DNA from: a virus
IMG/VR virus record: IMGVR_UViG_3300045988_164158
DNA length: 51,657 nt
Strand: one strand, 5' to 3'
In this document: one piece after another, positions 3,010 to 51,657 of the stretch
Position numbering within the stretch: the first letter of the stretch is position 1
How the letters are laid out: each line of letters begins with the position of its first letter
Translations under genes and position numbers: made by a program
Notes under the pieces: model-generated
Databases searched by the model: none
The model's input: only the letters and a program-made list of their open reading frames with translations
Told to the model about the DNA's origin: nothing

Positions 3010-3374
3010 CATCTCATATTCGCCTCGCGGCTGCACAGCTTAATTGCCCTCTTTGGCGCAATAACTGTGGGGGATTTTATGATGATACCGGTCGTTTTGT
3101 TCGATACGGTTTAGGGTCGGAAGCTAAATTAGCTTCCAGTGATTTTATCGGTATTCGTCCGGTGCTTATAACACCTGAAATGGTTGGACAAGTTTTAGGC
3201 ATATTTACAGCCGTTGAAATGAAAGCTGAAAATTGGCATTTTAACAAAAATGACAAACACCTCTTGCAACAAAAACAGTTTATTGATATTATTAAACAAT
3301 ACGGGGGGTTAGCAGGATTTGCAACAAGTGTTGAAGATTTTTATAGGATTATAAAATATGTCGATAACAAATAG
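2991..3374 (+). CDS. VRR-NUC domain nuclease (PD-(D/E)XK superfamily)
   Basis: SDFIGIRPV...VEMKAENW...QQKQF...GGLAGFATSVEDF pattern is typical of VRR-NUC. This domain is commonly paired with SNF2/SF2 helicases in phages. Confidence 0.55.
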   Translation: MRESAVTSHIRLAAAQLNCPLWRNNCGGFYDDTGRFVRYGLGSEAKLASSDFIGIRPVLITPEMVGQVLGIFTAVEMKAENWHFNKNDKHLLQQKQFIDIIKQYGGLAGFATSVEDFYRIIKYVDNK

Positions 3375-3645
3375 TATGAAAAAACAAGGTGAACAAACAA
3401 GAGAATCCATCCTTGAAACTGGATTAAAACTTTGGCCGAATGTTACACCTACAAGTATTGCTAACACCTTAAACATTTCTCATGGAACGGTAATTTATCA
3501 TTTCCCGGATATAAAAAATGCTGTGGCGGAATATGCTGTTAAAACGGGGAACTCTCGAGTAATTGTACAATTACTTGCGATGCGACACAAAGCTGTTAAA
3601 GATATGAACGCCGTTGAACGCATAAAACATTTTACAGCCATATGA
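3358..3645 (+). CDS. short TetR-family-like HTH DNA-binding protein
   Basis: TRESILETGLKLW...TSIANTLNISHGTVIYHF resembles the TetR N-terminal HTH. The protein is only 95 aa, so it lacks a full ligand domain. Confidence 0.4.
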   Translation: MSITNSMKKQGEQTRESILETGLKLWPNVTPTSIANTLNISHGTVIYHFPDIKNAVAEYAVKTGNSRVIVQLLAMRHKAVKDMNAVERIKHFTAI

Positions 3646-4885: not shown

Positions 4886-4977
4886 CGAACTTTTTTCGGG
4901 ATTGGGAGCACAGATTGCCGCTTTCAAACGTCTTAATATACCCTGTGAAGTAGTCGGTATTTTTAAGGGGTTATTCG

Positions 4978-7236
4978 ATGACAGATTTTAACCTTACAAC
5001 AGCTTATATTACCTCTCTTACCGGTAGTCCTGATACATCTTGTTTTTGGCTGCTGATAGACGAACATAATAAAAAAAACCCGCCGGTTATTATTTGCGAT
5101 TCGTTTGACAACTGTAATCAAATTTTGAAACTTTATAATGATTCTGGTTATGGTGTTTTTATAGCTATTAACTCTATTCGTTCCGGCTGTCCGAGAACAC
5201 TTGAAAATGTTGAACATGTTCGAGCACAAGTAGTTGATATTGACAACCCGTTGCAAATGCAAGACAGTTATAACAGAGCTATACAATCGGCTTGCCCACC
5301 GCATTTTGCCGTTCAAACATCGCCCGGTCACATTCATCTTTATTGGTTAATAGAACCATATGTAGGAAATGATTTTTTCAAAATTCAACAACAAAAACTT
5401 AATCAGCTTTATAATGGGGATATGAATGTTACTGACGCTACAAGAGTCATGCGCGTTCCCGGGTTTAATCATTGTAAAAGCGTACCGCAACTTGTAACAT
5501 GTTGGGGGATTCATAGCAATCCACGATATACAACGGAACAGATGCAAAATTATCTCGCGGATGTTAACATTGTTGAACATAATTTTGGGCTTCGTAAAAA
5601 ACTTGGTAACGAAATGTTACAGGCACCAAATTTTGAATTGTTGTTGAAAGCTTTGTATGATATTGACCCAAATGAACTTTTTCGAGATGAATGGTTGTCT
5701 GTTAGTGCATCGTTCAAACAAGCCGGGTGGTCGTTAACAAACGAGAATAACCTTTATACCGAATGGCTTAAATGGTGTTCAAATTATAAAAACAATAATC
5801 CAAAAGAAAACAAAACACTTTGGAACTCATTGAAAGAAACTCAAATCGGTTGGAAAAGTTTGCTCAGAAAAACTGAAAATATTCAACCTGTTGTTTATTT
5901 TGGTGAACGAGCTGAAGAAGACGAAAAAGAAATTGAAGTTTTAGGCAATGTGCTCGATGAACGCGGTAAAAAAATATGGTTTAAAAATTGTTATTTTGTC
6001 GAAAGTGAAGGGCGTATTTTTACTTCCAGTGGTCGATTTATGAATCAAATACAATTCAATGGGCGATACGGCGGCAAGGAATTTACAATTAAAAGCGCCG
6101 GAACAAAGCTTACAGACAATCCATGGAAAGCCGCTTTAAGCAGTGTTGACTGGTCCATACCAAAAGTCGACCATTGTCGTTTTTTACCTCAAGAACCTAC
6201 TTTTTCAATCATTCATGATGATTTAGGTCGCAAGGGACTAAATACATATATTCCAGCAAAGATAAAATCTATCGAAGGCGATGTTAGTAAATGGAAGGAT
6301 TATTTGTCAAAAGTATTTAATACACCAGAGGATGTTAAAATATTTGAAGATTACATTGCTCATTGTATAAAATTTCCCGGTGATAAAATTCCTTGGTCTG
6401 TTTTATTACAGTCAACCAAAGGTGTCGGTAAGCAAATGATAGGCGACGTGCTTAAACATTCAATTGGTGAAATATATACTTACCAGCCTGATGCTGAAGA
6501 ACTTGTTAGCGGTGTTAGTCAGTTTAACGGTTGGATGCGTAATAAACTTATGATATTAGTCGATGAAGTGCGTGTCGGTGACCGCAATGAACTTATGAAC
6601 GGGCTTAAAACTATCATCACTGACCGAAGAATTGCTGTAGAATCTAAAGGTGTCGATCAGCAAATGGAAGATAACGTCGCTAATTGGATATTTTTTAGCA
6701 ACTTCAAAGATGCTTTTCCAATCGACGAAAACGAGCGACGTTATTGTATATTTTACAGTAAATTACAATCAGCCTTGCAATTAGAAGAAGTTGGGATGAA
6801 TAAAAATTACTTCGATTCAATGTATAACTGGCTTGAATGTGAACATGGATTTGAAAAAATTGCATGGTATTATCTAAATTACCCGATTGAAAAAGGTTCC
6901 TTGTCGCATAGGGCACCACATACTTCAAGTTACGAAGAAGTGTTGAGAATCGGTAGAAGCCCCTTGCGTGTTATTCTTGACGATAAAATCGAAGCTGAAG
7001 AACGCGGATTTCGTGGTGGATATGTCAGTTTTGTGATGTTTCAAAAAGCCGTTTTAGACAGTTCTATGCGTACTAAACCTGCCGAGCATACATTGAAAGC
7101 TATTCTTGAAGGAAGGGGTTATCACGAGCTTGGACGGACGATAAAACCTATCCCGGGTGAAGATTTAACACATCCGAGTTTGATATTCGGTTTAAAGGGC
7201 AAAAGTATTGATGGATATGAAGATGCGCAAGGATAA
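4978..7236 (+). CDS. bifunctional primase-polymerase (PrimPol) / SF3 (D5/P4-alpha-like) helicase
   Basis: N-terminal PrimPol motifs VVDIDN, SPGHIHLYW and RVMRVPGFNHCK. C-terminal Walker A STKGVGKQ with downstream SF3 helicase architecture. Confidence 0.8.
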   Translation: MTDFNLTTAYITSLTGSPDTSCFWLLIDEHNKKNPPVIICDSFDNCNQILKLYNDSGYGVFIAINSIRSGCPRTLENVEHVRAQVVDIDNPLQMQDSYNRAIQSACPPHFAVQTSPGHIHLYWLIEPYVGNDFFKIQQQKLNQLYNGDMNVTDATRVMRVPGFNHCKSVPQLVTCWGIHSNPRYTTEQMQNYLADVNIVEHNFGLRKKLGNEMLQAPNFELLLKALYDIDPNELFRDEWLSVSASFKQAGWSLTNENNLYTEWLKWCSNYKNNNPKENKTLWNSLKETQIGWKSLLRKTENIQPVVYFGERAEEDEKEIEVLGNVLDERGKKIWFKNCYFVESEGRIFTSSGRFMNQIQFNGRYGGKEFTIKSAGTKLTDNPWKAALSSVDWSIPKVDHCRFLPQEPTFSIIHDDLGRKGLNTYIPAKIKSIEGDVSKWKDYLSKVFNTPEDVKIFEDYIAHCIKFPGDKIPWSVLLQSTKGVGKQMIGDVLKHSIGEIYTYQPDAEELVSGVSQFNGWMRNKLMILVDEVRVGDRNELMNGLKTIITDRRIAVESKGVDQQMEDNVANWIFFSNFKDAFPIDENERRYCIFYSKLQSALQLEEVGMNKNYFDSMYNWLECEHGFEKIAWYYLNYPIEKGSLSHRAPHTSSYEEVLRIGRSPLRVILDDKIEAEERGFRGGYVSFVMFQKAVLDSSMRTKPAEHTLKAILEGRGYHELGRTIKPIPGEDLTHPSLIFGLKGKSIDGYEDAQG

Positions 7237-14090: not shown

Positions 14091-14456
14091 TTACAAAGCT
14101 AGCACCGGGCGAACGTAGTAACCGTAGTCCTTATAGTCCCAGCCCAAACCGCAACTGCTGGAAAAGGTAGAGAGCCACGCGTAGCCGTAATAGTACTCCG
14201 ACGAAGACCAATACCAGTCTCTTTTAAGCGGCTCCCCGCCGGCGCGAATTAACGCTTTGTTTACAGCGTCTAAATTTTCAGCAATCGCCATCCATTCTTC
14301 CTTGCTCGGAATGCCTACTTTGACGGCGTCATACCAATTCATTTGTTTTTGCTCGTCGCGCAATCCCAGCACAATCGCCCGGCCGTTTATTTGGGCGGCG
14401 CGGACGCCGATTGGGCGTCCGTTCTTTTTAACAATCATAACTCTGAATTTTTTCAT
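14091..14456 (-). CDS. DUF1566 (Lcl C-terminal-like) domain protein, paralog A
   Basis: ...DWYWSSSEY..AW..F..G....YVRPV fits the DUF1566 signature. Locally GC-rich DNA. Shares near-identical DNA stretches with the 16006..16371 gene. Confidence 0.45.
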   Translation of the reverse strand: MKKFRVMIVKKNGRPIGVRAAQINGRAIVLGLRDEQKQMNWYDAVKVGIPSKEEWMAIAENLDAVNKALIRAGGEPLKRDWYWSSSEYYYGYAWLSTFSSSCGLGWDYKDYGYYVRPVLAL

Positions 14457-16005: not shown

Positions 16006-16371
16006 TTAAAAATTTACAATTACGCGGACATTATGTCTAAACGGTTTTTCATCAAAATTTAAACCGGATATTCTGTTAAAATCATAATAAAGCGCGTAAT
16101 CGTGCCTGGCTTCCGACGCCGACCAATAACAGTCTCTTTTAAGCGGCTCCCCGCCTGCCTGCTCGCATGCGTCATTGATAGCGTCAAAATTTTCACTAAT
16201 CGCAAACCATTCTTCAATTGACGGGATTGCTTGATATGAAGCGCTAAACCAATTCATCCGCTCCGGCTCATCTTGAAGCGCAAGGGTAATTATCCGGCCG
16301 TTTATTTGGGCGGCACGGACGCCTACCGGTTTGCCGTTTCTTTTAACAATTTCAACTTTAAATTTTGTCAT
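16006..16371 (-). CDS. DUF1566-like domain protein, paralog B
   Basis: ...CYWSASEARHDYALYYDF...VRVIV. DNA stretches (CCGGCCGTTTATTTGGGCGGC.CGGACGCC and TCTCTTTTAAGCGGCTCCCCGCC) are nearly identical to paralog A. Start at MTKFKV with an AAGGGG Shine-Dalgarno. Confidence 0.45.
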   Translation of the reverse strand: MTKFKVEIVKRNGKPVGVRAAQINGRIITLALQDEPERMNWFSASYQAIPSIEEWFAISENFDAINDACEQAGGEPLKRDCYWSASEARHDYALYYDFNRISGLNFDEKPFRHNVRVIVNF

Positions 16372-16375
16372 CTCA

Positions 16376-16567
16376 TTACCCCTTAAAATTAATTTCAGCA
16401 CCGTCGACACAATCAACAGCTTCGCGCAGATATCCCGGCAAACCGTCAACCATGTCGCAAACCCATTGATTGTTATATCCGTAAATTTGGAAACTTATTG
16501 AATCTTTCCCGGAATTTATGGCTTTTTCAACCATACTTTTAAAATCACTTGAATCAATTTTTTTCAT
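16376..16567 (-). CDS. hypothetical protein, first gene downstream of early promoter copy 1
   Basis: ORF. The ATG at 16567 is preceded by the conserved leader and an AAAAGGA Shine-Dalgarno. Confidence 0.45.
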   Translation of the reverse strand: MKKIDSSDFKSMVEKAINSGKDSISFQIYGYNNQWVCDMVDGLPGYLREAVDCVDGAEINFKG

Positions 16568-16627
16568 GTTCGAATCCTTTTCTTGTGTTTATACTTAATA
16601 TATAACATAAATTATTAAAATTGTCAA
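16568..16627 (-). promoter_or_regulatory. early sigma70-type promoter copy 1 (TTGACA-17-TATATA) plus conserved 5' leader
   Basis: On the minus strand: TTGACA (plus 16622-16627), a 17-nt spacer, then TATATA (16599-16604). The leader TAAGTATAAACACAAGAAAAGGATTCGAAC is near-identical to the copy at 17895-17955. Confidence 0.6.
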
Positions 16628-17894: not shown

Positions 17895-17955
17895 TTTTCG
17901 AATCCTTTCTTTATGTTTATACTTAATATATAACATAAATTATAAATGTTGTCAA
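17895..17955 (-). promoter_or_regulatory. early sigma70-type promoter copy 2 (TTGACA-17-TATATA) plus conserved leader
   Basis: On the minus strand: TTGACA (plus 17950-17955), a 17-nt spacer, then TATATA (17927-17932). Roughly 50 nt are identical to copy 1. Confidence 0.6.
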
Positions 17956-18344: not shown

Positions 18345-19121
18345 ATGTATTTAACGATAGATAGTCCAAACAAATGGCGACTTTATAAAGTGTATGATGA
18401 CAAGGGAGAACTTGTTTATATAAATATAGCGAAGCTCCCTGACATAATTACCCTGCGCAACATTTCCTGCGCAAGGTCTTTCAACCCTTTAACGACATAC
18501 GAAGTTATTATCGAAGAGAAGGAGTATGAAAACAAAATTGATGCGCTGAATGCTCTTACTCGTGCTCGTCCTTACAAAACACCTAAATTTAATCTGGAGG
18601 TTAAAGGGTATATGAATGACAGTCTCATTATCTGCGAGCAGACAAACGAAAAGTTTAAGAATCAAAGCGACGTATGCCAAAGATACGGCATTGACAAATC
18701 GAATTTAAGCAATCATCTGCGTAACAGAGATTTGAAAAAAAACATTAAAGGATTGTCGTTCCATTATTACAATGCGTTGGACGAGCAGAGAGAACTGATG
18801 CGGAAATGGACGCCGCTTATGTTTAATGTGGATCCACAGTATTGGGGAAATTTTGACGCGGATGTGGTTTACATGAGCTATAAATACCGACATCCGCTTG
18901 ATTTAAAATCGATTGACAAGCCGGTGTTCAATTACACGCCGTGGGCGCCTATCATTCCCGACGGCGACGACCCTATCCCGCCTGAAGCGCTTAACTTCCC
19001 CGTCCCGGGACAGGTCCCCTTGCCTGTACGGCACTGCAACCTTCAGGCCTTGTATGCGACAGAGGAGCTGCCGTGGCACAAGCCGGGGAGCAAAAGACCG
19101 CCTATTAAGTTAGACGATTGA
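18345..19121 (+). CDS. homing-endonuclease-like protein with NUMOD1 DNA-binding motif and a degenerate GIY-YIG-like N-terminus
   Basis: KFKNQSDVCQRYGIDKSNLSNHLRNRDLKKNIKGLSFHYY is NUMOD1-like. The N-terminal RLYKVYDDKGELVYIN has GIY-(10)-YIG spacing but lacks the glycines. AGGAG Shine-Dalgarno. The 3' part lies in the GC-rich island. Confidence 0.4.
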   Translation: MYLTIDSPNKWRLYKVYDDKGELVYINIAKLPDIITLRNISCARSFNPLTTYEVIIEEKEYENKIDALNALTRARPYKTPKFNLEVKGYMNDSLIICEQTNEKFKNQSDVCQRYGIDKSNLSNHLRNRDLKKNIKGLSFHYYNALDEQRELMRKWTPLMFNVDPQYWGNFDADVVYMSYKYRHPLDLKSIDKPVFNYTPWAPIIPDGDDPIPPEALNFPVPGQVPLPVRHCNLQALYATEELPWHKPGSKRPPIKLDD

Positions 19122-19136
19122 CTTAGGAGATAAACC

Positions 19137-19496
19137 ATGTTATTAAATAACAGAGATTGGTATATATTTATCAGAGACGGTGAGTACATAGTCGGCAAAC
19201 TGCCTTATGCTCTCAAAGAGGGGAGGGATATAGAGGTGCTGGGTCATGCGACCGCCAAACCTGAGGCTTATCGGCTGCTTGAGATGCTTGTTGGCTATCG
19301 CCCCCTCCGGCGGCACAAACAAGGTGTACCGGTGGAGTGTATAGACACAGGGGAGAGATTTGTCAATGCCAGAGAGGCGTGTGAGAAATATGGAATCTCT
19401 CAGCCTCTTATGAGTTTTCATCTCAGCGGCAAACCTTGCTATGCTACATGCAAGGGGCTGCGCTTTAAATATGTAGACAACGACACAGAGGTATAA
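19137..19496 (+). CDS. NUMOD1-like DNA-binding protein
   Basis: IDTGERFVNAREACEKYGISQPLMSFHLSGKPCYATCKGLRFKY matches NUMOD1. GC-rich. Confidence 0.4.
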   Translation: MLLNNRDWYIFIRDGEYIVGKLPYALKEGRDIEVLGHATAKPEAYRLLEMLVGYRPLRRHKQGVPVECIDTGERFVNAREACEKYGISQPLMSFHLSGKPCYATCKGLRFKYVDNDTEV

Positions 19497-20113
19497 TGAC
19501 ATCCTGTTATCCTACAAGTGCTTATGACATGATAACCGAGGCGGAGAGAGCCGTGCTCGAGGAGTATGTTAGCTATGCCGTGACAGAGCAGCAGCGCAAA
19601 CATCAACGGGTAGACCTCGCGCTTAATCTTCCGGTGCCTGCCGAGTTCATGCGCAAGGGGAGAGAGTGCTTTGCCAAGCCTGTGGTGCTTGCGGCATTGC
19701 GTGAGCGCCTGCTTGAGGAGAGTGCCAGACGCGACATATCGCCTGACAGAGTGATAAGAGAATACGGCAAAATAGCTTTCAGTGACATAAGCGACTATCT
19801 TGAGCAAGGGTCATGGGGGACCGTGCAACTGAAAGACTTTGCGAATATTTCGGCTGATAAACTCGGAGCAATCAAAAGTGTAGAGACACGTATGGGGAGC
19901 AATGGTGCGACACAGGTCAAACTCGTGTTGCATGACAAATTTCCGGCGCTTAAGGCGCTTGCCGAGCTTATGGGGCTGGTAGCTCCTGACGCTCCTCCGG
20001 CGCTTGAAGGCTATGTCAAACAAGAGATACGGTCGATGGAGCAAGCGGCGCTGCAAGCTCCTGAGGCAGAGTATGAGGAGCTGCTGGAGGAGGTCAACCG
20101 TGGGGACGACTAG
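19496..20113 (+). CDS. terS: terminase small subunit (Terminase_2/P27-like)
   Basis: Located directly upstream of TerL. ISPDRVIREYGKIAFSDISDY...FPALKALAELMGL resembles P27-family TerS. Confidence 0.6.
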   Translation: MTSCYPTSAYDMITEAERAVLEEYVSYAVTEQQRKHQRVDLALNLPVPAEFMRKGRECFAKPVVLAALRERLLEESARRDISPDRVIREYGKIAFSDISDYLEQGSWGTVQLKDFANISADKLGAIKSVETRMGSNGATQVKLVLHDKFPALKALAELMGLVAPDAPPALEGYVKQEIRSMEQAALQAPEAEYEELLEEVNRGDD

Positions 20114-20117
20114 CAGC

Positions 20118-21842
20118 ATGAGAGCGTTGACGGCTGCGCGCGCATCAACTGGACCAGTGCGCCCTTGGCATCCTCAACCGCTCGACAACGGCACATGGCC
20201 TCCTGACTACAAAGCGGTGTACGCATGGCGGACAGCTATGCTCCGCAGGCTTCGCTCAACGCCCGGTGCGCTTGAGGCGGCCCGGGCTTATTATAGTACA
20301 CGGCCGGGCAATTTTATAATGGACTGGATAGACACATATGACCCGAGACGTCAACAGGACAAATGGGTGCCTTTCATCTTCTTCAAACGCCAACAGGAGG
20401 TGATAGACTTTTTTGAGAGCTGTGCGGCAGACAGAGAGAGCGGGCTGGTGGAGAAATGCAGGGACTTCGGCTTGACATGGCTTGCTTGCGCTTATTCCGT
20501 ATGGCGATGGCTTTTTATTAAAAATGATGCTGTCGGGTGGGGGAGTCGCAAAGAAACGCTTGTCGACAAACCCGGAGACCCGGACAGTATATTTGAGAAG
20601 ATAAGACTTATTTTACACAGACTTCCGCGCATTTGGCTGCCTGAAGGCTTTAGCTTCGGGCGCAATTGTACTTATATGAAATTGCTTAATCCGGCTACTG
20701 GCGCCATTATTGCCGGAGAGGCCGGTGACAATATCGGCCGTGGTGGTCGACGGAGTTGTTATTTTTTAGACGAAGCAGCGCATTTGGAGAGAGCGGAGAA
20801 AGTAGAAGCGGCTTTAGGGGACAATACTAATGTCCGTATCGATATTTCATCGGTCAACGGCGTCGGTAATGTTTTTCATCGGAGACGCGAGAATGGTATT
20901 GTATGGACCCCGGAGCGAAAGGAGTATCCAATCGGTTATGTCAGGGTGTTTGTAGCAGATTGGCGAGACCATCCGACTAAAACGCAAGAATGGTATGACG
21001 CTCGTAAAGCTCGATATGAACGAGAGGGTATGGCACATATTTTTGCACAGGAGGTTGATAGGAATTATGCAGCTGCCGTAAGCAATACTGTTATCGTTTA
21101 CGAATGGATATTGGCGGCTGTCGACGCGCATATCAAACTTCCGTGGCTGGGAGAAGCTGTAGAAGCACATAAAAACGAATGGACGGCCGGGCTTGATATA
21201 GCAGACGAGGGAAATGACCGTAACGCTTTAGCCATGCGGGAATATGTCGTGTGGCGTCAAGTGGATGAATGGGGCGAGAGAGATCCGGGGATTTCCGCTC
21301 GCAAGGCTGTATTGGCATGTCGCCCACATGCGGGAAATATTACTTGTCAATATGACTGTATCGGTGTAGGAGCGGGTGTTAAAACAGAGTACAACAGACT
21401 TGCGATAGACGACGAGGTAATAGATGCAAAACGCATACCTTTTATTCCGTGGAATGCGGGCGCTGCTGTAGAAAGACCTTTTGAAAGAATTATACCTGAT
21501 GATAATGAAAGCTTGCAAAATAAAGATTTTTTTGATAATTTGAAAGCACAAGCTTGGTGGTCTATGCGCACAAGATTTTATAAAACCTATAAAGCTGTAA
21601 CGGAAGGTGTAAGATATAAACCGGAAGAACTTATATCTATAGACAGTTCAATGCAGCTTTTGGAACAGGTAAAAAAAGAACTTATGCAACCGACGGTCGG
21701 ATATAGTTCTCGGCTTAAAATGTTGATAGAAAAGAAACCGAACGGGATGAGATCGCCTAACTTAGCTGACAGTGGTGTTATGGCTTTCTTTCCTCTGTCG
21801 GAGAATACAAATTACAGTGTGGTTGGTTCATATGGGATATAA
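20118..21842 (+). CDS. terL: terminase large subunit
   Basis: Walker B-like SCYFLDEAAH with ATPase architecture, followed by a nuclease half. Precedes the portal gene. ATG at 20118 sits 5 nt after the TerS stop. Confidence 0.85.
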   Translation: MRALTAARASTGPVRPWHPQPLDNGTWPPDYKAVYAWRTAMLRRLRSTPGALEAARAYYSTRPGNFIMDWIDTYDPRRQQDKWVPFIFFKRQQEVIDFFESCAADRESGLVEKCRDFGLTWLACAYSVWRWLFIKNDAVGWGSRKETLVDKPGDPDSIFEKIRLILHRLPRIWLPEGFSFGRNCTYMKLLNPATGAIIAGEAGDNIGRGGRRSCYFLDEAAHLERAEKVEAALGDNTNVRIDISSVNGVGNVFHRRRENGIVWTPERKEYPIGYVRVFVADWRDHPTKTQEWYDARKARYEREGMAHIFAQEVDRNYAAAVSNTVIVYEWILAAVDAHIKLPWLGEAVEAHKNEWTAGLDIADEGNDRNALAMREYVVWRQVDEWGERDPGISARKAVLACRPHAGNITCQYDCIGVGAGVKTEYNRLAIDDEVIDAKRIPFIPWNAGAAVERPFERIIPDDNESLQNKDFFDNLKAQAWWSMRTRFYKTYKAVTEGVRYKPEELISIDSSMQLLEQVKKELMQPTVGYSSRLKMLIEKKPNGMRSPNLADSGVMAFFPLSENTNYSVVGSYGI

Positions 21843-23323: not shown

Positions 23324-24081
23324 TGAGTAGAGGATGGAAATTTGATGATGCTGGAAATATTATTGTAAAAGATGGTAATCCGGTTTACATTAACACAAAC
23401 GGCGATGAACAAACTGTATCCGTAGATACTATTGCCAATTTGAACAGAGAAGCAAGGGATAACAGACTTGCAAAAGAAGAAGCTTTAGACAAGCTTAAAG
23501 TTTTTGAAGGTATTGACCCTGTAAAAGCTCGTGAAGCTTTAGATGCTTTTAATAAAATTGATAGCAATAAACTCATTGAAGCAGGCAAAGTAGATGAGCT
23601 TAAAGCTCAAATTACTTCTCAGTTTCAAACTCAGATTGATGAAAAAACCAAAGCTTTAAGTGAGTTACAGAGTAAATATGAAAATATGATTATTAACAAT
23701 GTATTCGCAAACAGCGATTTTATTCGCAATAATGTTGCCGTCCCGAGAGATATGTTTGAAGCTAAGTTTCGTGAGAATTTTAAAGTTGAGAATGGTCAAG
23801 TTGTTGTTTACGGTAACGACGGAAATCGTTTGTACAGCAAAGAACATGCTGGCGAATATGCAACCCCGGAAGAAGGTTTGCGGATTTTAACTGAAAATCA
23901 TCCTCAGCATGAGAGTATTCTTCGTGCTAATGCAGGGAATGGTACAGGAAGTTCTGGGGCTGGCGGCAGTACCGGTAGTTCACGGTATATGCAACGAGCA
24001 CTTTTTGAAAAACTTTCGCCTCAGCAGCAGTTGGAATATGCTAAGAAAATGGCAAATGGTGAAATTACCTTGACAGATTAG
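23323..24081 (+). CDS. scaffolding protein (coiled-coil, between portal and capsid)
   Basis: Position. Helical, charged sequence. ATGA overlap with the portal gene. Confidence 0.5.
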   Translation: MSRGWKFDDAGNIIVKDGNPVYINTNGDEQTVSVDTIANLNREARDNRLAKEEALDKLKVFEGIDPVKAREALDAFNKIDSNKLIEAGKVDELKAQITSQFQTQIDEKTKALSELQSKYENMIINNVFANSDFIRNNVAVPRDMFEAKFRENFKVENGQVVVYGNDGNRLYSKEHAGEYATPEEGLRILTENHPQHESILRANAGNGTGSSGAGGSTGSSRYMQRALFEKLSPQQQLEYAKKMANGEITLTD

Positions 24082-24125
24082 AAAGTAACTGTTAAAGTAT
24101 AATTGCTTTTTTCTAGGATTAGATA

Positions 24126-24217
24126 AGCGCATCAGGTTGGATGACCTATATCAATCAATCGGTGCGCTTTTTTTACGCACCAAATAAAGTTTAACAAAAT
24201 TTGAAAGGTGCTGATTT
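24126..24217 (+). promoter_or_regulatory. conserved late 5'-leader element, copy A (AGGTTGGATGACCTA..AATCAATCAATCGGTGCGC-T7-ACGCACCAAATAAA...TTTGAAAGGTGCT-ATG)
   Basis: About 80 of 90 nt are identical to the copy at 28329-28409. It contains the stem-loop GGTGCG/CGCACC with a T-rich loop and a shared Shine-Dalgarno, GAAAGGTG. A TATAAT lies at 24098-24103 upstream. Confidence 0.55.
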
Positions 24218-25363
24218 ATGAGCAATATTTTGACTAAACTCATCCCTGACCTGTATCAGAATTTGGATGAAGTTTCTCGTGAGCTTACCGGTTTTTTGCC
24301 GTCTGTAGCTCGTAATTCTTCCGCCGTCCGTGCTGCTCTTGGTGAATCTGTTATTGTACCGGTAAGTACGGCTATGGAATCTGGTAATGTTACTCCGTCT
24401 ATGACTGTTCCTGAACCGGAAGATTTTACCATGGATAACGTTGCGATTCAGATTACGAAATCTCGTAATGTTTCCTTTGGTTTGACCGGTGAAGAATTTC
24501 AGGGTGTTAACAATGGTGTTGGAGCTAATTATATTCTCGGTGAAAACATCAAGCAGGCCGTTCGTACGTTGGTTAATGAAATGGAGAAAGATGTAGCGAT
24601 CGAAGCTGCTGTCGGCAGTTCTCGCGCATTTGGTACGGCTGGAAGTACCCCGTTTGCAAGTGATTTGACCGATGCTGCTCACATTAAGAAAATTCTTGAT
24701 GATAACGGAGCACCGATGGGTGGACGTTCTTTAATTATCGACAGTACCGCTGGTGTTAATCTTCGTTCTTTGACTCAGTTGACTAATGTTGGTGATGCTG
24801 GTACCAATATGACCTTGCGTCAGGGTGAACTGCTGAATCTTTTTGGTTTTTCCATCAAAGAGTCAGCTGGTATTTACAATGTTGCTCAGTCGTCTATTGA
24901 AGGCGTTACGCTTAGTGCCGCTGAAATCGGTGCTAATGAACTGACGATTAAAGCAGCTACTTCTGGTTCTCTGAAAGCCGGGGATGTTATTACCATCGCT
25001 GGTGACGATAATAAATATGTCGTTGCTGAATCTAATTCTTCCCTGTCTGCCGGTAATAAAATTAAAATTGCCAAACCGGGATTGCTTCATGCAGTTGCTG
25101 ACGGTTCTTCAGTTACTGTCGTTGCCGCTTCTGCTCGAAACATTGCTTTTACGAAGAACGCTATTCAGTTGGTTACTCGTGCTCCTGCCCTTCCGGCCGG
25201 GCGTGATGCAGCTATCGATAGTTACATTCTGACCGACTCACGTTCGGGTATGGCTTTTGAAGTCCGTGTATATCAGGGCTACAGAAAGATGCGTATGGAA
25301 GTTGCCTGCGCATGGGGTGTTAAGGTTATTAAACCTGAACACGTCGCAACCTTGCTTGGTTAA
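24218..25363 (+). CDS. major capsid protein (HK97-fold, inferred)
   Basis: Position after the scaffold gene. 381 aa. Codon usage typical of a highly expressed gene. Preceded by the conserved leader and followed by a strong terminator. Confidence 0.65.
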   Translation: MSNILTKLIPDLYQNLDEVSRELTGFLPSVARNSSAVRAALGESVIVPVSTAMESGNVTPSMTVPEPEDFTMDNVAIQITKSRNVSFGLTGEEFQGVNNGVGANYILGENIKQAVRTLVNEMEKDVAIEAAVGSSRAFGTAGSTPFASDLTDAAHIKKILDDNGAPMGGRSLIIDSTAGVNLRSLTQLTNVGDAGTNMTLRQGELLNLFGFSIKESAGIYNVAQSSIEGVTLSAAEIGANELTIKAATSGSLKAGDVITIAGDDNKYVVAESNSSLSAGNKIKIAKPGLLHAVADGSSVTVVAASARNIAFTKNAIQLVTRAPALPAGRDAAIDSYILTDSRSGMAFEVRVYQGYRKMRMEVACAWGVKVIKPEHVATLLG

Positions 25364-25373
25364 GGTAAAAAAA

Positions 25374-25406
25374 GGGGGGCGGGTTTCCCCGTTCCCCTGA
25401 TTTTTT
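25374..25406 (+). terminator. rho-independent terminator after the capsid gene
   Basis: GGGGGGCGGG-TTTC-CCCGTTCCCC stem followed by TGATTTTTT. Confidence 0.6.
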
Positions 25407-25413
25407 ATGGAGA

Positions 25414-27911: not shown

Positions 27912-28309
27912 TTGAATCTAAAATCGTTAGTCTTTTGCAAAAACAAGTTACCAAAGCCGTTAACGGTCTTTTTCCGGTTAAATATTTGAATACTAATATT
28001 GAAGTAACTGATTCGTTTTGGGAAATTGTTTACATCCCGAACAATATTGAAAATGAATTTTGGGACAAAGGAAAAACTTATCAAGGTATTTTAAGATTGA
28101 TATTACATTGGCCGGCGGACAATACTGGTATTTACAACCCTCTTCAAGAAGCTGAAAGAGTTGCTGGTGAATTTTCCAAAGGGCTTGAATTATTTGGTGA
28201 TGACATCAAGGTTATTATTACTGATAATCCAAATTTAACCAGTCTGAATGAAGATGACGGAAAGTTGTTAATACCCTTGACAATTCGATATTTGTGTTTT
28301 AAGCTATAA
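27908..28309 (+). CDS. tail terminator-like protein (gpU-like, by position)
   Basis: Position before the major tail protein gene. About 130 aa. Confidence 0.3.
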   Translation: MIESKIVSLLQKQVTKAVNGLFPVKYLNTNIEVTDSFWEIVYIPNNIENEFWDKGKTYQGILRLILHWPADNTGIYNPLQEAERVAGEFSKGLELFGDDIKVIITDNPNLTSLNEDDGKLLIPLTIRYLCFKL

Positions 28310-28328
28310 TCGCATGGAAATACCTCCG

Positions 28329-28409
28329 GGCGCACTAGGTTGGATGACCTAAAAATCAATCAATCGGTGCGCTTTTTTACGCACCAAATAAAATTTTAAT
28401 ATTTGAAAG
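28329..28409 (+). promoter_or_regulatory. conserved late 5'-leader element, copy B
   Basis: See copy A. TATAAT at 28305-28310 upstream. Confidence 0.55.
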
Positions 28410-29165
28410 GTGCTAAAAATGGCAAATACAAACGCATTCTCGAAAATTTATGTTTGCCCTGATTCACAGAATGATGAATTGACTGCTGATGATTACGCAG
28501 GGTTAAATTGGGTTTTGATTAAAGGTGTAGGCAACCTTGGTGAAACTGGTAAATCTACTAACATTTTGAGTTATCCTACATGGGAAACCAGTGTATCAGA
28601 TAAAGCCAAAGGTATTACTGATGCGGGTTCCCCGACTCTTGAAGTTGCTCGTGACCCGAAAGATGAAGGTCAGAAAATTCTCAATGCCGCTAGTGCTGTT
28701 GGTAATAATAATAACTATGCTTTTAAAATTGAACGTGCAGATGCCCCGGTTGGTGGTATTGGTACAATTTTGTACAATCGCGGTCTTGTTGCTGGACCGA
28801 CTCGTCCGAACGGACAGAATGAAGATTTTGACTTGGAAGTTTTTACTCTTGCATTGGTTCAGGAAGAAATTGTCGTCCTTCCGACAACTGGTGTTGAAGC
28901 CCCGGTATTGACCGCAGCCCCGAGTATTAGCGGAACGGCAGAAGTCGGAGAAACTTTAACTTGTTCGACTGGTACGTTTACCGGTACGTCTCTTACTTAC
29001 AGTTATCAGTGGTTTGCGAACGGTCTTGTTGTGTCAAATGCTGTTGAAAATACTTATGAATTAACTGAGGCAGATAAAGGTAAAGTCTTTTCTTGTCGTG
29101 TAACTGCTCGAAACAACGGTGGTTCTGCTACTGGTTTTTCAAATACTACAACAGCTGTACTTTAA
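28410..29165 (+). CDS. major tail (tube) protein with C-terminal Ig-like domain
   Basis: Position before the G/GT chaperone genes. High-expression codon usage. The C-terminal 90 aa (SISGTAEVGETLTCSTGTFTGTSLTYSYQWFANG...FSCRVTARN) are Ig-like. Confidence 0.6.
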   Translation: MLKMANTNAFSKIYVCPDSQNDELTADDYAGLNWVLIKGVGNLGETGKSTNILSYPTWETSVSDKAKGITDAGSPTLEVARDPKDEGQKILNAASAVGNNNNYAFKIERADAPVGGIGTILYNRGLVAGPTRPNGQNEDFDLEVFTLALVQEEIVVLPTTGVEAPVLTAAPSISGTAEVGETLTCSTGTFTGTSLTYSYQWFANGLVVSNAVENTYELTEADKGKVFSCRVTARNNGGSATGFSNTTTAVL

Positions 29166-49138: not shown

Positions 49139-49379
49139 TTTCTAAACCTTCTAACATTCGTGGACGTACTTGAGATTTATAAATGCTATCGGCGTTTATA
49201 GCAATTTCATCACTTGTTAAAATTTTCAAATCCTCAAGCATTGCAATTAATGTCATAAGAATTACAAAATTTCGTAATCCCATATCTCTTAAATCACTAA
49301 AATTTTCTGGTAACATAAAAACCTCCGTTAATTTATTAAATGAGCAGACTTTGACCGGTCTGCCAGCGGTTATCAACAT
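49116..49379 (-). CDS. hypothetical protein
   Basis: ORF. TAATG overlap with the upstream stop. Confidence 0.35.
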   Translation of the reverse strand: MLITAGRPVKVCSFNKLTEVFMLPENFSDLRDMGLRNFVILMTLIAMLEDLKILTSDEIAINADSIYKSQVRPRMLEGLENEQRKMD

Positions 49380-50224
49380 TAATACGGTATTCTATCATTA
49401 ACCAACGTAGAAAACGGTTGACCCGATGCAGGCTGAGCAGTCGGCACACCTTGCGCATTGTTAACAAAATCATAAGCAGGGGCGGGCATAGGAGCCTGCG
49501 GCATTACAGGAGCCTGCGGCATTACAGGAGCCTGCGGCATTACAGGAGCCTGCGGCATTGGCATCTGTGCTGTGCCAGGTGCTGAACTGATAGGTGTTGC
49601 CGATGCTCCGACAGGTACAGCAGACACCTGACCGCCAAACAATTTCATCGGGTCGGCATTTACCGAACCTTTAATCGCCTGACCGTATCCAACAATTTCA
49701 TAAGCGTTTGGATTCCAATAAATACCCCCGTCTTTTTCAGTATGTACGGTCAAATTGACGCTTGTAACAACATAATCGCCGGTTTTAACTTCCCCTGCTT
49801 CAACTTTACGGTAAGCTCCGTTTTCAAACTTGTAAGTCGAAGGACAGAAAGCCGATGTACGAATTTTGATGACATAACAACCTTTGTAACCGTCACGGGT
49901 ATTGTACGGTACATTTGACCCTTGCGGACAAGCAGGGCTGTCACCGTTAATGATTTTCCAAGCAAATCTCGTCATTTCAAGCTGTTCAGGATTTACATTT
50001 GCGTATTGCGGATAGATTTTTGCAACTTCCTGAACAACATAAGGCCAAACATTCTGCATAAATTCAGCTTTAGGAATGGCAAGGTCGATACGATGTTCTT
50101 TGACAGGTTGACCGTTTTTATCCGTTTTAGGCTGTTTGGTATAAAAATCAATCGCCTGTTCAAATTTATTAGGATCGCCGCCGACAATACGACCAGCCGG
50201 CAATTTAAAGCATTCTAACGTCAT
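49379..50224 (-). CDS. DUF2815-like putative ssDNA-binding protein with a Pro-rich (PQAPVM)n repeat linker and C-terminal PAPAYDFVNN...DRIPY tail
   Basis: N-terminal GRIVGGDPNKFEQA...RIDLAIPKAEF resembles the DUF2815 rlsYphlFep...llIPK pattern. Located in a DUF2800/polymerase module. Contains a 21-bp tandem repeat. Confidence 0.4.
   Translation of the reverse strand: MTLECFKLPAGRIVGGDPNKFEQAIDFYTKQPKTDKNGQPVKEHRIDLAIPKAEFMQNVWPYVVQEVAKIYPQYANVNPEQLEMTRFAWKIINGDSPACPQGSNVPYNTRDGYKGCYVIKIRTSAFCPSTYKFENGAYRKVEAGEVKTGDYVVTSVNLTVHTEKDGGIYWNPNAYEIVGYGQAIKGSVNADPMKLFGGQVSAVPVGASATPISSAPGTAQMPMPQAPVMPQAPVMPQAPVMPQAPMPAPAYDFVNNAQGVPTAQPASGQPFSTLVNDRIPY
49485..49565. repeat. 21-bp tandem repeat (GGAGCCTGCGGCATTACAGGA, about 3.7 copies) encoding (PQAPVM)n
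   Basis: Direct reading. Confidence 0.85.
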
Positions 50225-51300: not shown

Positions 51301-51657
51301 TCACAAACCTTTTTTAACCAATTCGTTAATTACATAACTAAGAGCCTGTGCATTACCTCTCAATTCAGCAGCTCCTTGATAAGAAGTCCCATAAGTAGCA
51401 TTAACACCGGCAATCACATTTTGCATGAAATTAGCATCAAGCACTTTCATCTGTAAACCGTTACGTAACTGTTCGAACATTCTGTTGTAAAGAGCTTCCG
51501 GGTCTTCTGCAACAGAAGACGTTGTGGCTTCAACAGGTGCCTGACAAGCGACGGTATTATTAATGAAATCATATGCCGGAGCAACCGGAGCAACCGGAGC
51601 AACCGGAGCAACCGGAGCAACCGGAGCAACCGGAGCAACCGGAGCAACCGGAGCAAC
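51301..51657 (-). CDS. C-terminal part of the repeat-containing protein that starts at 372 (wraps around the window ends)
   Basis: Frame ...(APV)n-APAYDFINNTVACQAPVEATT...VINELVKKGL*, with a TGA at 51301-51303. The repeat is in the same frame as the left-end segment. Confidence 0.6.
   Translation of the reverse strand, partial: VAPVAPVAPVAPVAPVAPVAPVAPVAPAYDFINNTVACQAPVEATTSSVAEDPEALYNRMFEQLRNGLQMKVLDANFMQNVIAGVNATYGTSYQGAAELRGNAQALSYVINELVKKGL
51577..51657. repeat. Tandem 9-bp repeat (AACCGGAGC)n at the right window end
   Basis: Direct reading. Identical unit and phase to 1..81. Confidence 0.9.

Follow-up and report, generated by a model that had tools for sequence, protein, structure and literature searches.

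A conserved two-hairpin GGAU element in the leaders of scaffold, capsid and tail genes of phages related to Rhizobium phage vB_RglS_P106B

Two leader copies and their genes

The viral record IMGVR_UViG_3300045988_164158, a DNA of 51,657 nucleotides (nt) analysed here over its whole length (the window), carries two copies of a module of ~165 nt, one located before the major capsid gene (start codon at 24218) and the other before the major tail gene (28419). We are very confident that this module is a structured regulatory leader, an apparently undescribed cis-regulatory RNA in which a new sensor motif is combined with a known kind of leader switch. A sequence-only reading had proposed a duplicated leader upstream of these two genes, and the duplication is real, with both copies at the sites given there (24126–24217 and 28329–28409). 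When 24126–24217 is aligned with 28329–28418, 78 of 88 positions are identical and three small indels are present. The similarity between the copies extends further 5′ than first described, from a −35-like TTGACA (24070 and 28277) to the start codons. In both copies the TTGACA falls within the final codons of the preceding gene, and the coding sequences flanking the two leaders are unrelated to each other. All of the motifs listed in the sequence-only reading were located in both copies, namely the 14-mer AGGTTGGATGACCT (24134–24147 and 28337–28350, with no third exact copy in the window), CAATCAATC (24152–24160 and 28357–28365), GGTGCG/CGCACC with a U-rich loop, and the Shine–Dalgarno sequence GAAAGGTGCT (24203–24212 and 28405–28414).

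The gene following the first leader (24218–25363) encodes a P22-coat-like major head protein (phrog_283, E = 2e-87; PF11651), and that following the second (28419–29165) encodes a major tail protein (phrog_158, E = 1.5e-20); the PHROG and Pfam matches thus uphold the proposed association with the major capsid and major tail genes. The genes immediately 5′ of the leaders encode the scaffold (capsid copy) and the tail terminator (tail copy). The window has no copy of the element before the scaffold gene, the start of which overlaps the portal stop codon. The codon usage of the capsid and tail genes had been called distinct, and it is, although only mildly so. The share of T at third codon positions (T3) is 0.51 and that of A (A3) is 0.14–0.23, compared with 0.41–0.49 and 0.25–0.34 in the neighbouring genes; within this group, T3 is highest and A3 lowest in the genes for capsid and tail. 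The signals that delimit the two units are as follows.

24070–24103, plus strand: predicted promoter-like region of the capsid leader, in register with relatives; −35 TTGACA (24070–24075), −10 TAAAGT (24093–24098; 17-nt spacer, TG at 24090–24091) and an overlapping TATAAT (24098–24103; 22-nt spacer)
24203–24220, plus strand: Shine–Dalgarno sequence GAAAGGUGCU (GGUGC at 24207–24211, segment 4) and the capsid ATG (24218), from the sequence and gene assignment
25373–25408, plus strand: strong intrinsic-terminator-like hairpin (11 pairs, 8 of them G–C) with a T run, just 3′ of the capsid stop codon, from a terminator scan
28277–28310, plus strand: predicted promoter-like region of the tail leader; TTGACA (28277–28282), TAAGCT (28300–28305; 17-nt spacer) and TATAAT (28305–28310)
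28405–28421, plus strand: Shine–Dalgarno sequence GAAAGGUGCU and the major tail ATG (28419), from the sequence and gene assignment

Because a terminator-like hairpin directly follows its stop codon, the capsid gene appears to be a promoter-to-terminator unit of its own. The TATAAT noted earlier is present before each copy, but it is less likely to act as the −10 element than the TAAAGT or TAAGCT located 5 nt upstream, as judged by the register with distant relatives. The tail-terminator gene, with its stop codon at 28307–28309, ends within the promoter-like region of the tail leader. The string TTGACA-N22-TATAAT occurs in the window at just the two leader sites, plus one N23 site at 5105, and TTGACA-N20–24-TATAAT gives 3 matches compared with 0.13 expected. 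Relatives have canonical TTGAC-N17-TAnnnT promoters, the −10 ending mostly 15–17 nt before the first GGAU of the element described below. When the 85 nt upstream of each of 64 non-redundant elements were searched, 39 contained a site with a sigma-70-like score of at least 9 out of 12 at a fixed distance, compared with 9% of control windows. Either choice of −10 should place the predicted transcription start at ~24104–24111, upstream of the hairpins.

The two-hairpin domain and its distribution among relatives

The window phage is a member of the Rhizobium phage vB_RglS_P106B group (genus Rigallicvirus), with 40–60% identity to P106B in the helicase, primase, DNA polymerase, exonucleases, terminase, portal, scaffold, capsid and tail proteins, and its capsid protein is DAU20361.1 of an uncultured Caudoviricetes assembly. 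A capsid-alignment search found 331 related viral contigs, of which 80 were examined; individual loci are designated below by L numbers. The part of the leader that is conserved across these relatives consists of two small hairpins upstream of the hairpin that was described first. The first hairpin of this sensor domain is bulged (P0/P1) and the second is short (P2), and both have a GGAU tetraloop at the tip. The upstream GGAU hairpin of the capsid copy (24112–24123) was absent from the earlier description. Model R1, a covariance model of the two-hairpin domain, was built from the relatives.

24104–24131, plus strand: bulged hairpin P0/P1, with 5′ UGC (24104–24106) paired to GCA (24129–24131), UUU to AAG and UCUA to UAGA, and a GGAU loop (24116–24119); from a constrained fold (L003 is identical here), model R1 and covariation
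24125–24133, plus strand: segment 1, AAGCGCAUC, the linker between the hairpins, which by folding pairs with the 5′ UGC (P0) or with segment 2 (terminator stem)
24134–24147, plus strand: P2, AGGUU-GGAU-GACCU, with a GGAU loop (24139–24142) and a U·G closing pair; from the sequence, covariation and model R1
28328–28351, plus strand: tail-copy segment 1, GGGCGCACU (28328–28336), and P2, UAGGUU-GGAU-GACCUA (28336–28351; loop 28342–28345); from the sequence, folding and model R1

The stems of the two hairpins vary by lineage (AGGU/ACCU, GGC/GCC, GAC/GUC, UUGAU/AUCAA, GCGG/CCGC and CGGU/ACCG; in P1, for example, UUAA-GGAU-UUAA in L005), while the loop YGGAUR is constant. The closing pair of P2 covaries as U·G, C–G or U–A, and this joint change of the Y and R of YGGAUR identifies the motif as a GGAU tetraloop. 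In the leader regions of 60 non-redundant capsid genes (260 nt upstream of each), GGAT was flanked by at least four complementary pairs in 72 of 105 occurrences (69%), compared with 3.6% in the downstream coding sequence and 1.8% on the opposite strand. At least one GGAU hairpin was present in 42 of the 60 capsid leaders and at least two in 30. The sense strand had 219 GGAU hairpins and 39 distinct hairpin pairs, the antisense strand 57 and 0, respectively, and the GGAU-to-GGAU spacing was 22–25 nt in 35 of the 39 pairs. An alignment of 29 sequences has 93% of its cells paired and 9 of 10 stem pairs changed on both sides; the inner four stem pairs were the selection criterion of this alignment, and the GGAT test before the 60 capsid genes is the cleaner evidence. 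The conserved UGC at the predicted 5′ end is complementary to the conserved GCG/GCA of the linker, so that the first hairpin is probably the tip of the longer bulged P0/P1. Segment 1 is thereby predicted to have three possible partners, namely the 5′ UGC, segment 2 or, in some relatives, the Shine–Dalgarno sequence.

These features point to an RNA rather than to an operator in duplex DNA, since G·U pairs are frequent, the pattern is strand-specific and the loop is kept while the arms vary. A double-stranded DNA operator, or a recombination or packaging site, would fit with the direct repeats of TTGGATGA lying ~two helical turns apart in some relatives and with the helix-turn-helix (HTH) proteins encoded by the phage. 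We nevertheless consider such a site highly improbable: constant loops between varying inverted-repeat arms are the opposite of what a palindromic operator would keep, and the frequent G·U pairs, the strict strand bias, the variation of the spacing between 22 and 25 nt and the position downstream of the promoter also speak against it. The suggestion that the element is transcribed and acts in cis as an RNA leader is thus supported by the strand-specific hairpins, the covarying stems and the promoters at a fixed distance upstream. The further suggestion of a binding site for a late regulator fits the invariant GGAU loops. Sister lineages carry other purine-rich loops in both hairpins 5′ of the capsid gene, namely AGGA twice (L178), GAGAU twice (L176), and GAGAC plus GCGAC (L183).

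Model R1 has exactly two matches in the window, at 24100–24158 (52.9 bits) and 28305–28361 (33 bits). In close relatives from IMG/VR both copies are present and their core hardly varies. Two matches each, located before the scaffold and capsid genes, were found in Rhizobium phages P106B and RHph_X2_24, and no match was found in Acinetobacter phage qsb1 or Paraglaciecola virus JLT2, in which the capsid gene directly follows the scaffold gene. The 80 related metagenomic loci contain 84 matches, all co-oriented with structural genes, and the genes 3′ of them are of three kinds only, capsid (50), scaffold (20) and tail tube (14). The covariance search proposed in the sequence-only reading, for which absence from relatives would have counted against the element, therefore found it in the relatives. 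Rfam 15 gave no match at the gathering score in the whole window or in 8 related loci, and only chance-level matches to the leader when E values up to 10 were admitted (E ≥ 0.17). Literature on P106B, Rigallicvirus, the GGAU tetraloop, and capsid-gene stem-loops or antitermination yielded no description of the element. A host-genome origin was considered and rejected: among 185,579 species-representative bacterial genomes, the two-box pattern has only 5 chance-like matches, and the element appears to be carried by phages, not by their hosts. There is no general support for a concerted evolution of the capsid and tail copies, as identity within genomes (0.62–0.83) is no higher than that between genomes (0.69–0.75).

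Several observations were made in the relatives alongside this survey. The capsid leader of P106B (L222; 4856–5102, GGAU hairpins at 4968–5027) is annotated as two tiny open reading frames, P106B_07 and P106B_08, which are probably spurious gene calls. The capsid and tail reading frames of many relatives (among them L195 at 6001, L153, L179, L034 and L042 at 5725) begin with a signal-peptide-like N-terminal extension of 20–25 residues (MRKSFLAASTAILAAPAMVHQSAYA followed by NTLTGLIPDLY in one example), which could be a propeptide or reflect a misplaced start; the window proteins have no such extension. A gene of RHph_X2_24 located between those for the small and large terminase subunits (L224, 641–1240) is annotated as a postulated host sigma factor decoy (Srd-like), and a counterpart was not detected in the window.

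The copies preceding scaffold genes have a geometry of their own. P2 lies 0–6 nt from the Shine–Dalgarno sequence or the start codon, or holds the Shine–Dalgarno sequence within its loop, and in six scaffold lineages, including P106B, the GGA of the P2 loop is at Shine–Dalgarno distance from the AUG with no other Shine–Dalgarno sequence present. Most of the scaffold-gene copies have no promoter-like site, so the element is probably internal to a longer transcript there. This arrangement is the classic geometry of a translational operator and, together with the restriction of the motif to scaffold, capsid and tail-tube genes, it gives some weight to a repressor or feedback site, at which an unassembled scaffolding protein or another structural protein would bind the GGAU hairpins and lower synthesis, or act with opposite signs to balance stoichiometry. 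Phages of the window type have P22-type coat proteins, and the scaffolding protein of P22 is known to autoregulate its synthesis post-transcriptionally. We consider this explanation unlikely, since the hairpins of the capsid and tail leaders are situated 20–75 nt from the ribosome-binding site, where their folding competes with sequestering structures and not with ribosome binding, and since the scaffold gene of the window has no copy.

Competing folds of the downstream platform

The sequence downstream of the sensor can form mutually exclusive helices from the following parts.

24152–24160, plus strand: CAAUCAAUC, complementary (including G·U pairs) to GGUUGGAUG of P2; in the predicted lowest-energy fold it adds to the terminator stem, and P2 is unfolded
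24161–24174, plus strand: segment 2, GGUGCGC (24161–24167), followed directly by U7 (24168–24174); by folding, it forms with segment 1 a terminator-like hairpin of −20.5 kcal/mol
24176–24181, plus strand: segment 3, CGCACC, which pairs with segment 2 (Shine–Dalgarno sequence free) or with GGUGC (Shine–Dalgarno sequence sequestered), from folding and pairing across leaders
28357–28385, plus strand: tail copy with CAAUCAAUC (28357–28365), segment 2 GGUGCGC (28366–28372), U6 (28373–28378) and segment 3 CGCACC (28380–28385), from the sequence and folding

The two copies have one lowest-energy fold in common, as predicted by RNAfold (−30.8 and −30.3 kcal/mol; z = −3.4 and −4.2). Segment 1 (GCGCAUC or GCGCACU) is paired with segment 2 (GGUGCGC) in this fold, the helix being lengthened by pairing of GGUUGG with UCAAUC of the CAAUCAAUC repeat, and segment 3 (CGCACC) pairs with the GGUGC of the Shine–Dalgarno sequence. 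The 1:2 hairpin on its own has a predicted energy of −20.5 kcal/mol and ends exactly at the start of the U7 or U6 run. Constrained folding shows that once segment 1 is blocked, a hairpin between segments 2 and 3 forms in place of the pairing between segment 3 and the Shine–Dalgarno sequence. The GGUGCG/CGCACC hairpin singled out in the sequence-only reading is hence a possible fold, yet it is the mutually exclusive alternative and not the lowest-energy structure. The accompanying statement that it is not a terminator fails for the leader as a whole, in which the GCGCAUC:GGUGCGC hairpin is followed at once by U6–7, and the Shine–Dalgarno sequence is not simply strong, as it is predicted to be sequestered by CGCACC. 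The CAATCAATC repeat is present and complementary to GGUUGGAUG of the second hairpin, but it is clade-specific and lies outside the conserved core.

As modelled, the leader has the four-segment layout of an attenuator, in which helices 1:2 and 3:4 coexist and helix 2:3 replaces both. A stable G+C-rich hairpin followed by at least 5–6 U residues, as in intrinsic terminators, is present in both copies (U7 at 24168–24174 and U6 at 28373–28378). Across 20 leaders the predicted pairing holds at 86% for 1:2, 97% for 2:3 and 95% for 3:Shine–Dalgarno, and one position has been altered coordinately in all four segments, from A/U/A/U to G/C/G/C, in L163 and P106B. Mutually exclusive helices that share a strand and are each supported by covariation, as expected of an attenuator or riboswitch platform, were thus found in 20 sequences of few lineages; the four segments are retained in the low-GC clade and in P106B. 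Other relatives use other platforms. In L195-type leaders segment 1 pairs directly with the Shine–Dalgarno region, and the ribosome-binding site of three tail leaders is paired to the loop and 3′ arm of P2, so that three platform types follow the same two-hairpin domain. For the window, the L195-type and the three tail leaders, these models predict a free ribosome-binding site when the sensor is folded. A constant sensor combined with a variable platform is what leaders that respond to a ligand or a protein usually show.

When the conserved hairpins are enforced, the full leader is on average ~5 kcal/mol less stable than its free ensemble. Because they are disfavoured in this context, the hairpins would need kinetic stabilisation or stabilisation by a factor. 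With the hairpins enforced, the predicted accessibility of the ribosome-binding site increased in 17 of 41 leaders and decreased in 3, a comparison in which some start codons are possibly misassigned.

An explanation without any switching is a constitutive leader that boosts output, its 5′-terminal hairpins protecting the mRNA from 5′-end-dependent decay or marking a processing site. The 5′ untranslated region of ompA stabilises its own mRNA, and RNase III sites flank T7 gene 10. The short distance from the predicted −10 end to the first GGAU in most relatives, which places P0/P1 within a few nucleotides of the predicted 5′ end, agrees with this explanation, as do the biased codon use of the downstream genes, which encode the most abundant virion proteins, and the promoter and terminator of the capsid gene. 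A stabiliser, however, requires neither an invariant GGAU, nor a fixed spacing, nor two hairpins; most scaffold copies, having no promoter-like site, are probably internal; and the four competing segments and the hairpin followed by a U run are left unexplained. We therefore regard a purely constitutive role as rather improbable.

The terminator-like hairpin also bears on processive antitermination of the nut or put kind, in which RNA polymerase, modified by the nascent hairpins either on their own or together with a phage protein, would read through the leader terminator and later ones such as that at 25373–25408. Promoter-proximal hairpins, several copies per genome and terminators downstream are all as this mechanism would have them. 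It accords poorly with a leader that has no boxA-like sequence and a loop unlike a GNRA-like pentaloop, and with the platforms of relatives that act on the ribosome-binding site without any terminator. The leader terminator would, moreover, be purposeless if the modification of the polymerase were constitutive. We find this mechanism quite improbable.

The proposed switch and its setting in the phage

A model of the capsid and tail leaders as an ON-switch stabilised by a factor accounts for these features, and we put it forward tentatively, giving it somewhat less than an even chance. Host polymerase would start at the sigma-70-type promoter of the leader itself. In the default OFF state, which corresponds to the lowest-energy fold, segment 2 would capture segment 1 to form the terminator-like hairpin at the U6–7 run, and transcripts escaping termination would have the GGUGC of the Shine–Dalgarno sequence masked by segment 3. 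In the ON state, the two GGAU hairpins would stay folded with segment 1 held in P0, segment 2 would pair with segment 3, the polymerase would pass the U run and the Shine–Dalgarno sequence would be open. Late in infection, the ON state would be stabilised by a trans-acting factor that reads the two identical GGAU loops; a phage-encoded RNA-binding protein, bivalent or dimeric, is the most likely candidate. The fixed spacing, the presence of the same loop twice and the joint change of both loops in L178 and L176 favour a bivalent, co-evolving and probably phage-encoded protein. Promoters that host polymerase would otherwise read constitutively would in this way yield capsid and tail-tube proteins in a burst.

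A number of observations weigh against this model. The first hairpin of the tail copy is degenerate (AUGGAAAU, 28314–28321), and a shuffle test of helix P0 gave a modest result (mean z ~−1). A simple terminator scan did not list the 1:2 hairpin, an omission explained by its length (~44 nt) and its irregular structure with internal loops. In L155, L163 and P106B the U tract is weak or missing, and termination may be limited to the low-GC clade. The platform covariation comes from 20 sequences representing few independent lineages, and the mean shift in accessibility on enforcing the hairpins is small, from 0.48 to 0.54. The sign of regulation is not uniform either, as a folded or bound hairpin should repress the scaffold gene where P2 abuts or contains the Shine–Dalgarno sequence. 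No RNA-binding domain was found in the window open reading frames scanned with Pfam and PHROG (20 window proteins against Pfam). A phmmer search of all window open reading frames with CsrA, S21, Hfq, lambda N and Q, and Mu Com likewise gave no match, although this is a weak test. The reading frames common to the window and P106B, as assigned with Pfam and PHROG, include a VRR-NUC endonuclease, an M78-like peptidase, an AlpA-type HTH protein, a methyltransferase and orphans, and only 3 close homologues were found for the 258-aa protein encoded by the gene that opens the rightward operon.

The missing protein candidate is one point in favour of a factor-free or small-molecule switch, that is, a self-contained aptamer resembling the two-tetraloop guanidine-II riboswitch or a co-transcriptional kinetic trap, sensing a metabolite, an ion or temperature, or the docking of 30S subunits on the Shine–Dalgarno-like GGA loops. 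Two small hairpins with identical conserved tetraloops, followed by variable expression platforms, would suit such a device, and in the six scaffold leaders in which the loop GGA is the sole Shine–Dalgarno sequence ribosomes must engage the P2 loop. Against it, the AGGA and GAGAU variants cannot keep a symmetric loop–loop contact and argue for a co-evolving partner; the fixed loop spacing of 22–25 nt suits a bivalent protein better than a kissing complex; the loop has been kept as GGAU, which is a poorer match to the anti-Shine–Dalgarno sequence than GGAG; and no Rfam riboswitch matches. A switch of this kind seems to us as unlikely as the repressor site discussed above.

A related but doubtful idea is that the GGAU domain is the receptor of a new regulator acting with opposite signs. 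The regulator, whether a phage RNA-binding protein, free scaffolding protein or the 30S subunit, would turn the scaffold gene OFF, because the hairpin is located at the ribosome-binding site there, and the capsid and tail-tube genes ON, because folding releases both the terminator and the Shine–Dalgarno sequence. If true, the element would be a post-transcriptional master switch that sets the stoichiometry of virion proteins in a large siphovirus family including the genus Rigallicvirus.

The leader was compared with known RNA systems. Like the targets of ANTAR proteins (AmiR, NasR and EutV) and the RAT sites of BglG/LicT, it has short leader hairpins with conserved loops and covarying stems, two in tandem as in the ANTAR targets, and the sensor overlaps the 5′ arm of a terminator-like hairpin, so that the folded or bound sensor excludes the terminator. 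The ANTAR arrangement of two tandem short hairpins, of which the second overlaps the 5′ arm of the terminator, is found here. ANTAR target hexaloops have a conserved A at position 1 and G at position 4, whereas the loop here is YGGAUR, a GGAU tetraloop closed by a Y–R pair. The leader also differs from both systems in serving phage structural genes, in sequestering the Shine–Dalgarno sequence as well and in having a purely translational platform in relatives. No ANTAR or PRD protein was found among the scanned reading frames, which included the 20 window proteins compared with Pfam. The guanidine-II (mini-ykkC) riboswitch similarly consists of two small hairpins with the same tetraloop, and folding controls the linker and a downstream ribosome-binding site; its loops are ACGR and not GGAU, Rfam gives no match, and here the spacing is fixed and the linker is conserved and pairs. 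The lineage-specific loop variants of the leader argue for a macromolecular partner.

Lambda nut/N and HK022 put resemble the element as phage-encoded promoter-proximal hairpins present in at least two copies per genome upstream of terminators. The element differs in having no boxA (no boxA-like string was read in 24104–24217 or 28311–28418), no GNRA-like pentaloop, a place in late structural leaders rather than early operons, and a local switch layout; phmmer, here a weak test, found no lambda N-like protein among the window reading frames. The put sites of HK022 and HK639 consist of two stem-loops of ~65–70 nt directly after the promoter that act on RNA polymerase without a protein. The likeness to them is limited to position and hairpin number, and Rfam gives no match. 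CsrA/RsmA sites also present GGA in the loops of two short hairpins ~20–25 nt apart in a 5′ leader, but here A(N)GGA is absent (Y–Y precedes GGA), the tetraloop is tight, and no site covers the Shine–Dalgarno sequence of the window, GAAAGGUGCU, which has no GGA. The motif also occurs in Rhizobium phages, a weak phmmer test found no phage CsrA, and to our knowledge the Rhizobium group generally lacks CsrA. With T7 gene 10 the capsid unit shares a dedicated promoter, a leader and a downstream terminator, and with Mu Com/mom the proposed exposure of a sequestered ribosome-binding site by a factor binding an upstream hairpin; it differs in its host sigma-70-type promoters and in the conserved two-hairpin domain common to three genes, and the weak phmmer test found no Com homologue. 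The element is not a member of any of the systems compared, as the loop consensus, the partner and the Rfam models all fail.

Other candidates were rejected. No tRNA or tmRNA was found. A leader peptide is not conserved, as the reading frame that begins at the AUG of the P2 loop has a length of 17 codons in the capsid copy but only 2 in the tail copy, and of 2–23 codons in relatives. Mimicry of the 16S rRNA 3′ end was considered because GGUUGGAUGACCU matches GGUUGGAUCACCU, which we take to be that end, at 12 of 13 positions, but only GGAU is kept in relatives. A hairpin UUUUAUA-GGAU-UAUAAAA (7 bp) at 3339–3356 has its GGA at Shine–Dalgarno distance from a gene for a 95-aa TetR-like HTH protein (3358–3645), homologues of which occur only in Rigallicvirus phages among 50,697 phage records. 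A similar hairpin is located at the equivalent site in P106B, not in RHph_X2_24, and its reading as a third copy of the element was set aside as probably a coincidence of Arg-Ile coding.

The window contains further repeats and a compositional boundary. Its ends (1–90 and 51575–51657) carry the same tandem 9-nt repeat, CCGGAGCAA, ~ten times, which suggests that the assembly is circular or permuted and overlaps at its termini. The repeat is part of a minus-strand reading frame related to P106B_54, in which it would specify a repeated tripeptide. The capsid protein of the window is also recorded on a contig of 129,077 bp, 2.5 times the window length, probably a concatemer. An 18-nt unit, AGGAGCCTGCGGCATTAC, occurs in ~four tandem copies at 49490–49559 within the minus-strand gene 49379–50224, which is related to the Gp2.5-like single-stranded DNA-binding/annealing protein of P106B. 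A 59-nt repeat with 90% identity (16569–16627 and 17897–17955) reads on the minus strand as TTGACA-N17-TATATA plus a short leader ending in AAAAGGAUUCGAA, and looks like a duplicated early promoter and leader for leftward genes. Within 14178–14456 and 16093–16371, two stretches of ~125–130 nt that are 70–75% identical and 1915 nt apart indicate paralogous minus-strand early genes (14091–14456 and 16006–16449). Finally, the G+C content at third codon positions is 0.45–0.57 in the region from the first rightward gene to the large terminase gene (18345–21842), compared with 0.19–0.30 in the structural genes that follow. The proteins encoded by 18345–19121 and 19137–19496 and the small terminase are 100% identical to those of IMGVR_UViG_3300045988_161624, whose capsid protein is only 89% identical; this block is a mosaic module exchange.

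The timing and balance of abundant virion proteins in tailed phages that depend on host polymerase are known for few model phages. Here, the genes for scaffold, capsid and tail tube have one compact RNA element in common, which is present in most of the 80 relatives examined and has features typical of a regulated switch. The element could serve as a small portable control part. Its presence in the cultured Rhizobium phages P106B and RHph_X2_24 makes the prediction directly testable, and the discovery of its partner could reveal a new RNA-binding regulator or riboswitch class.

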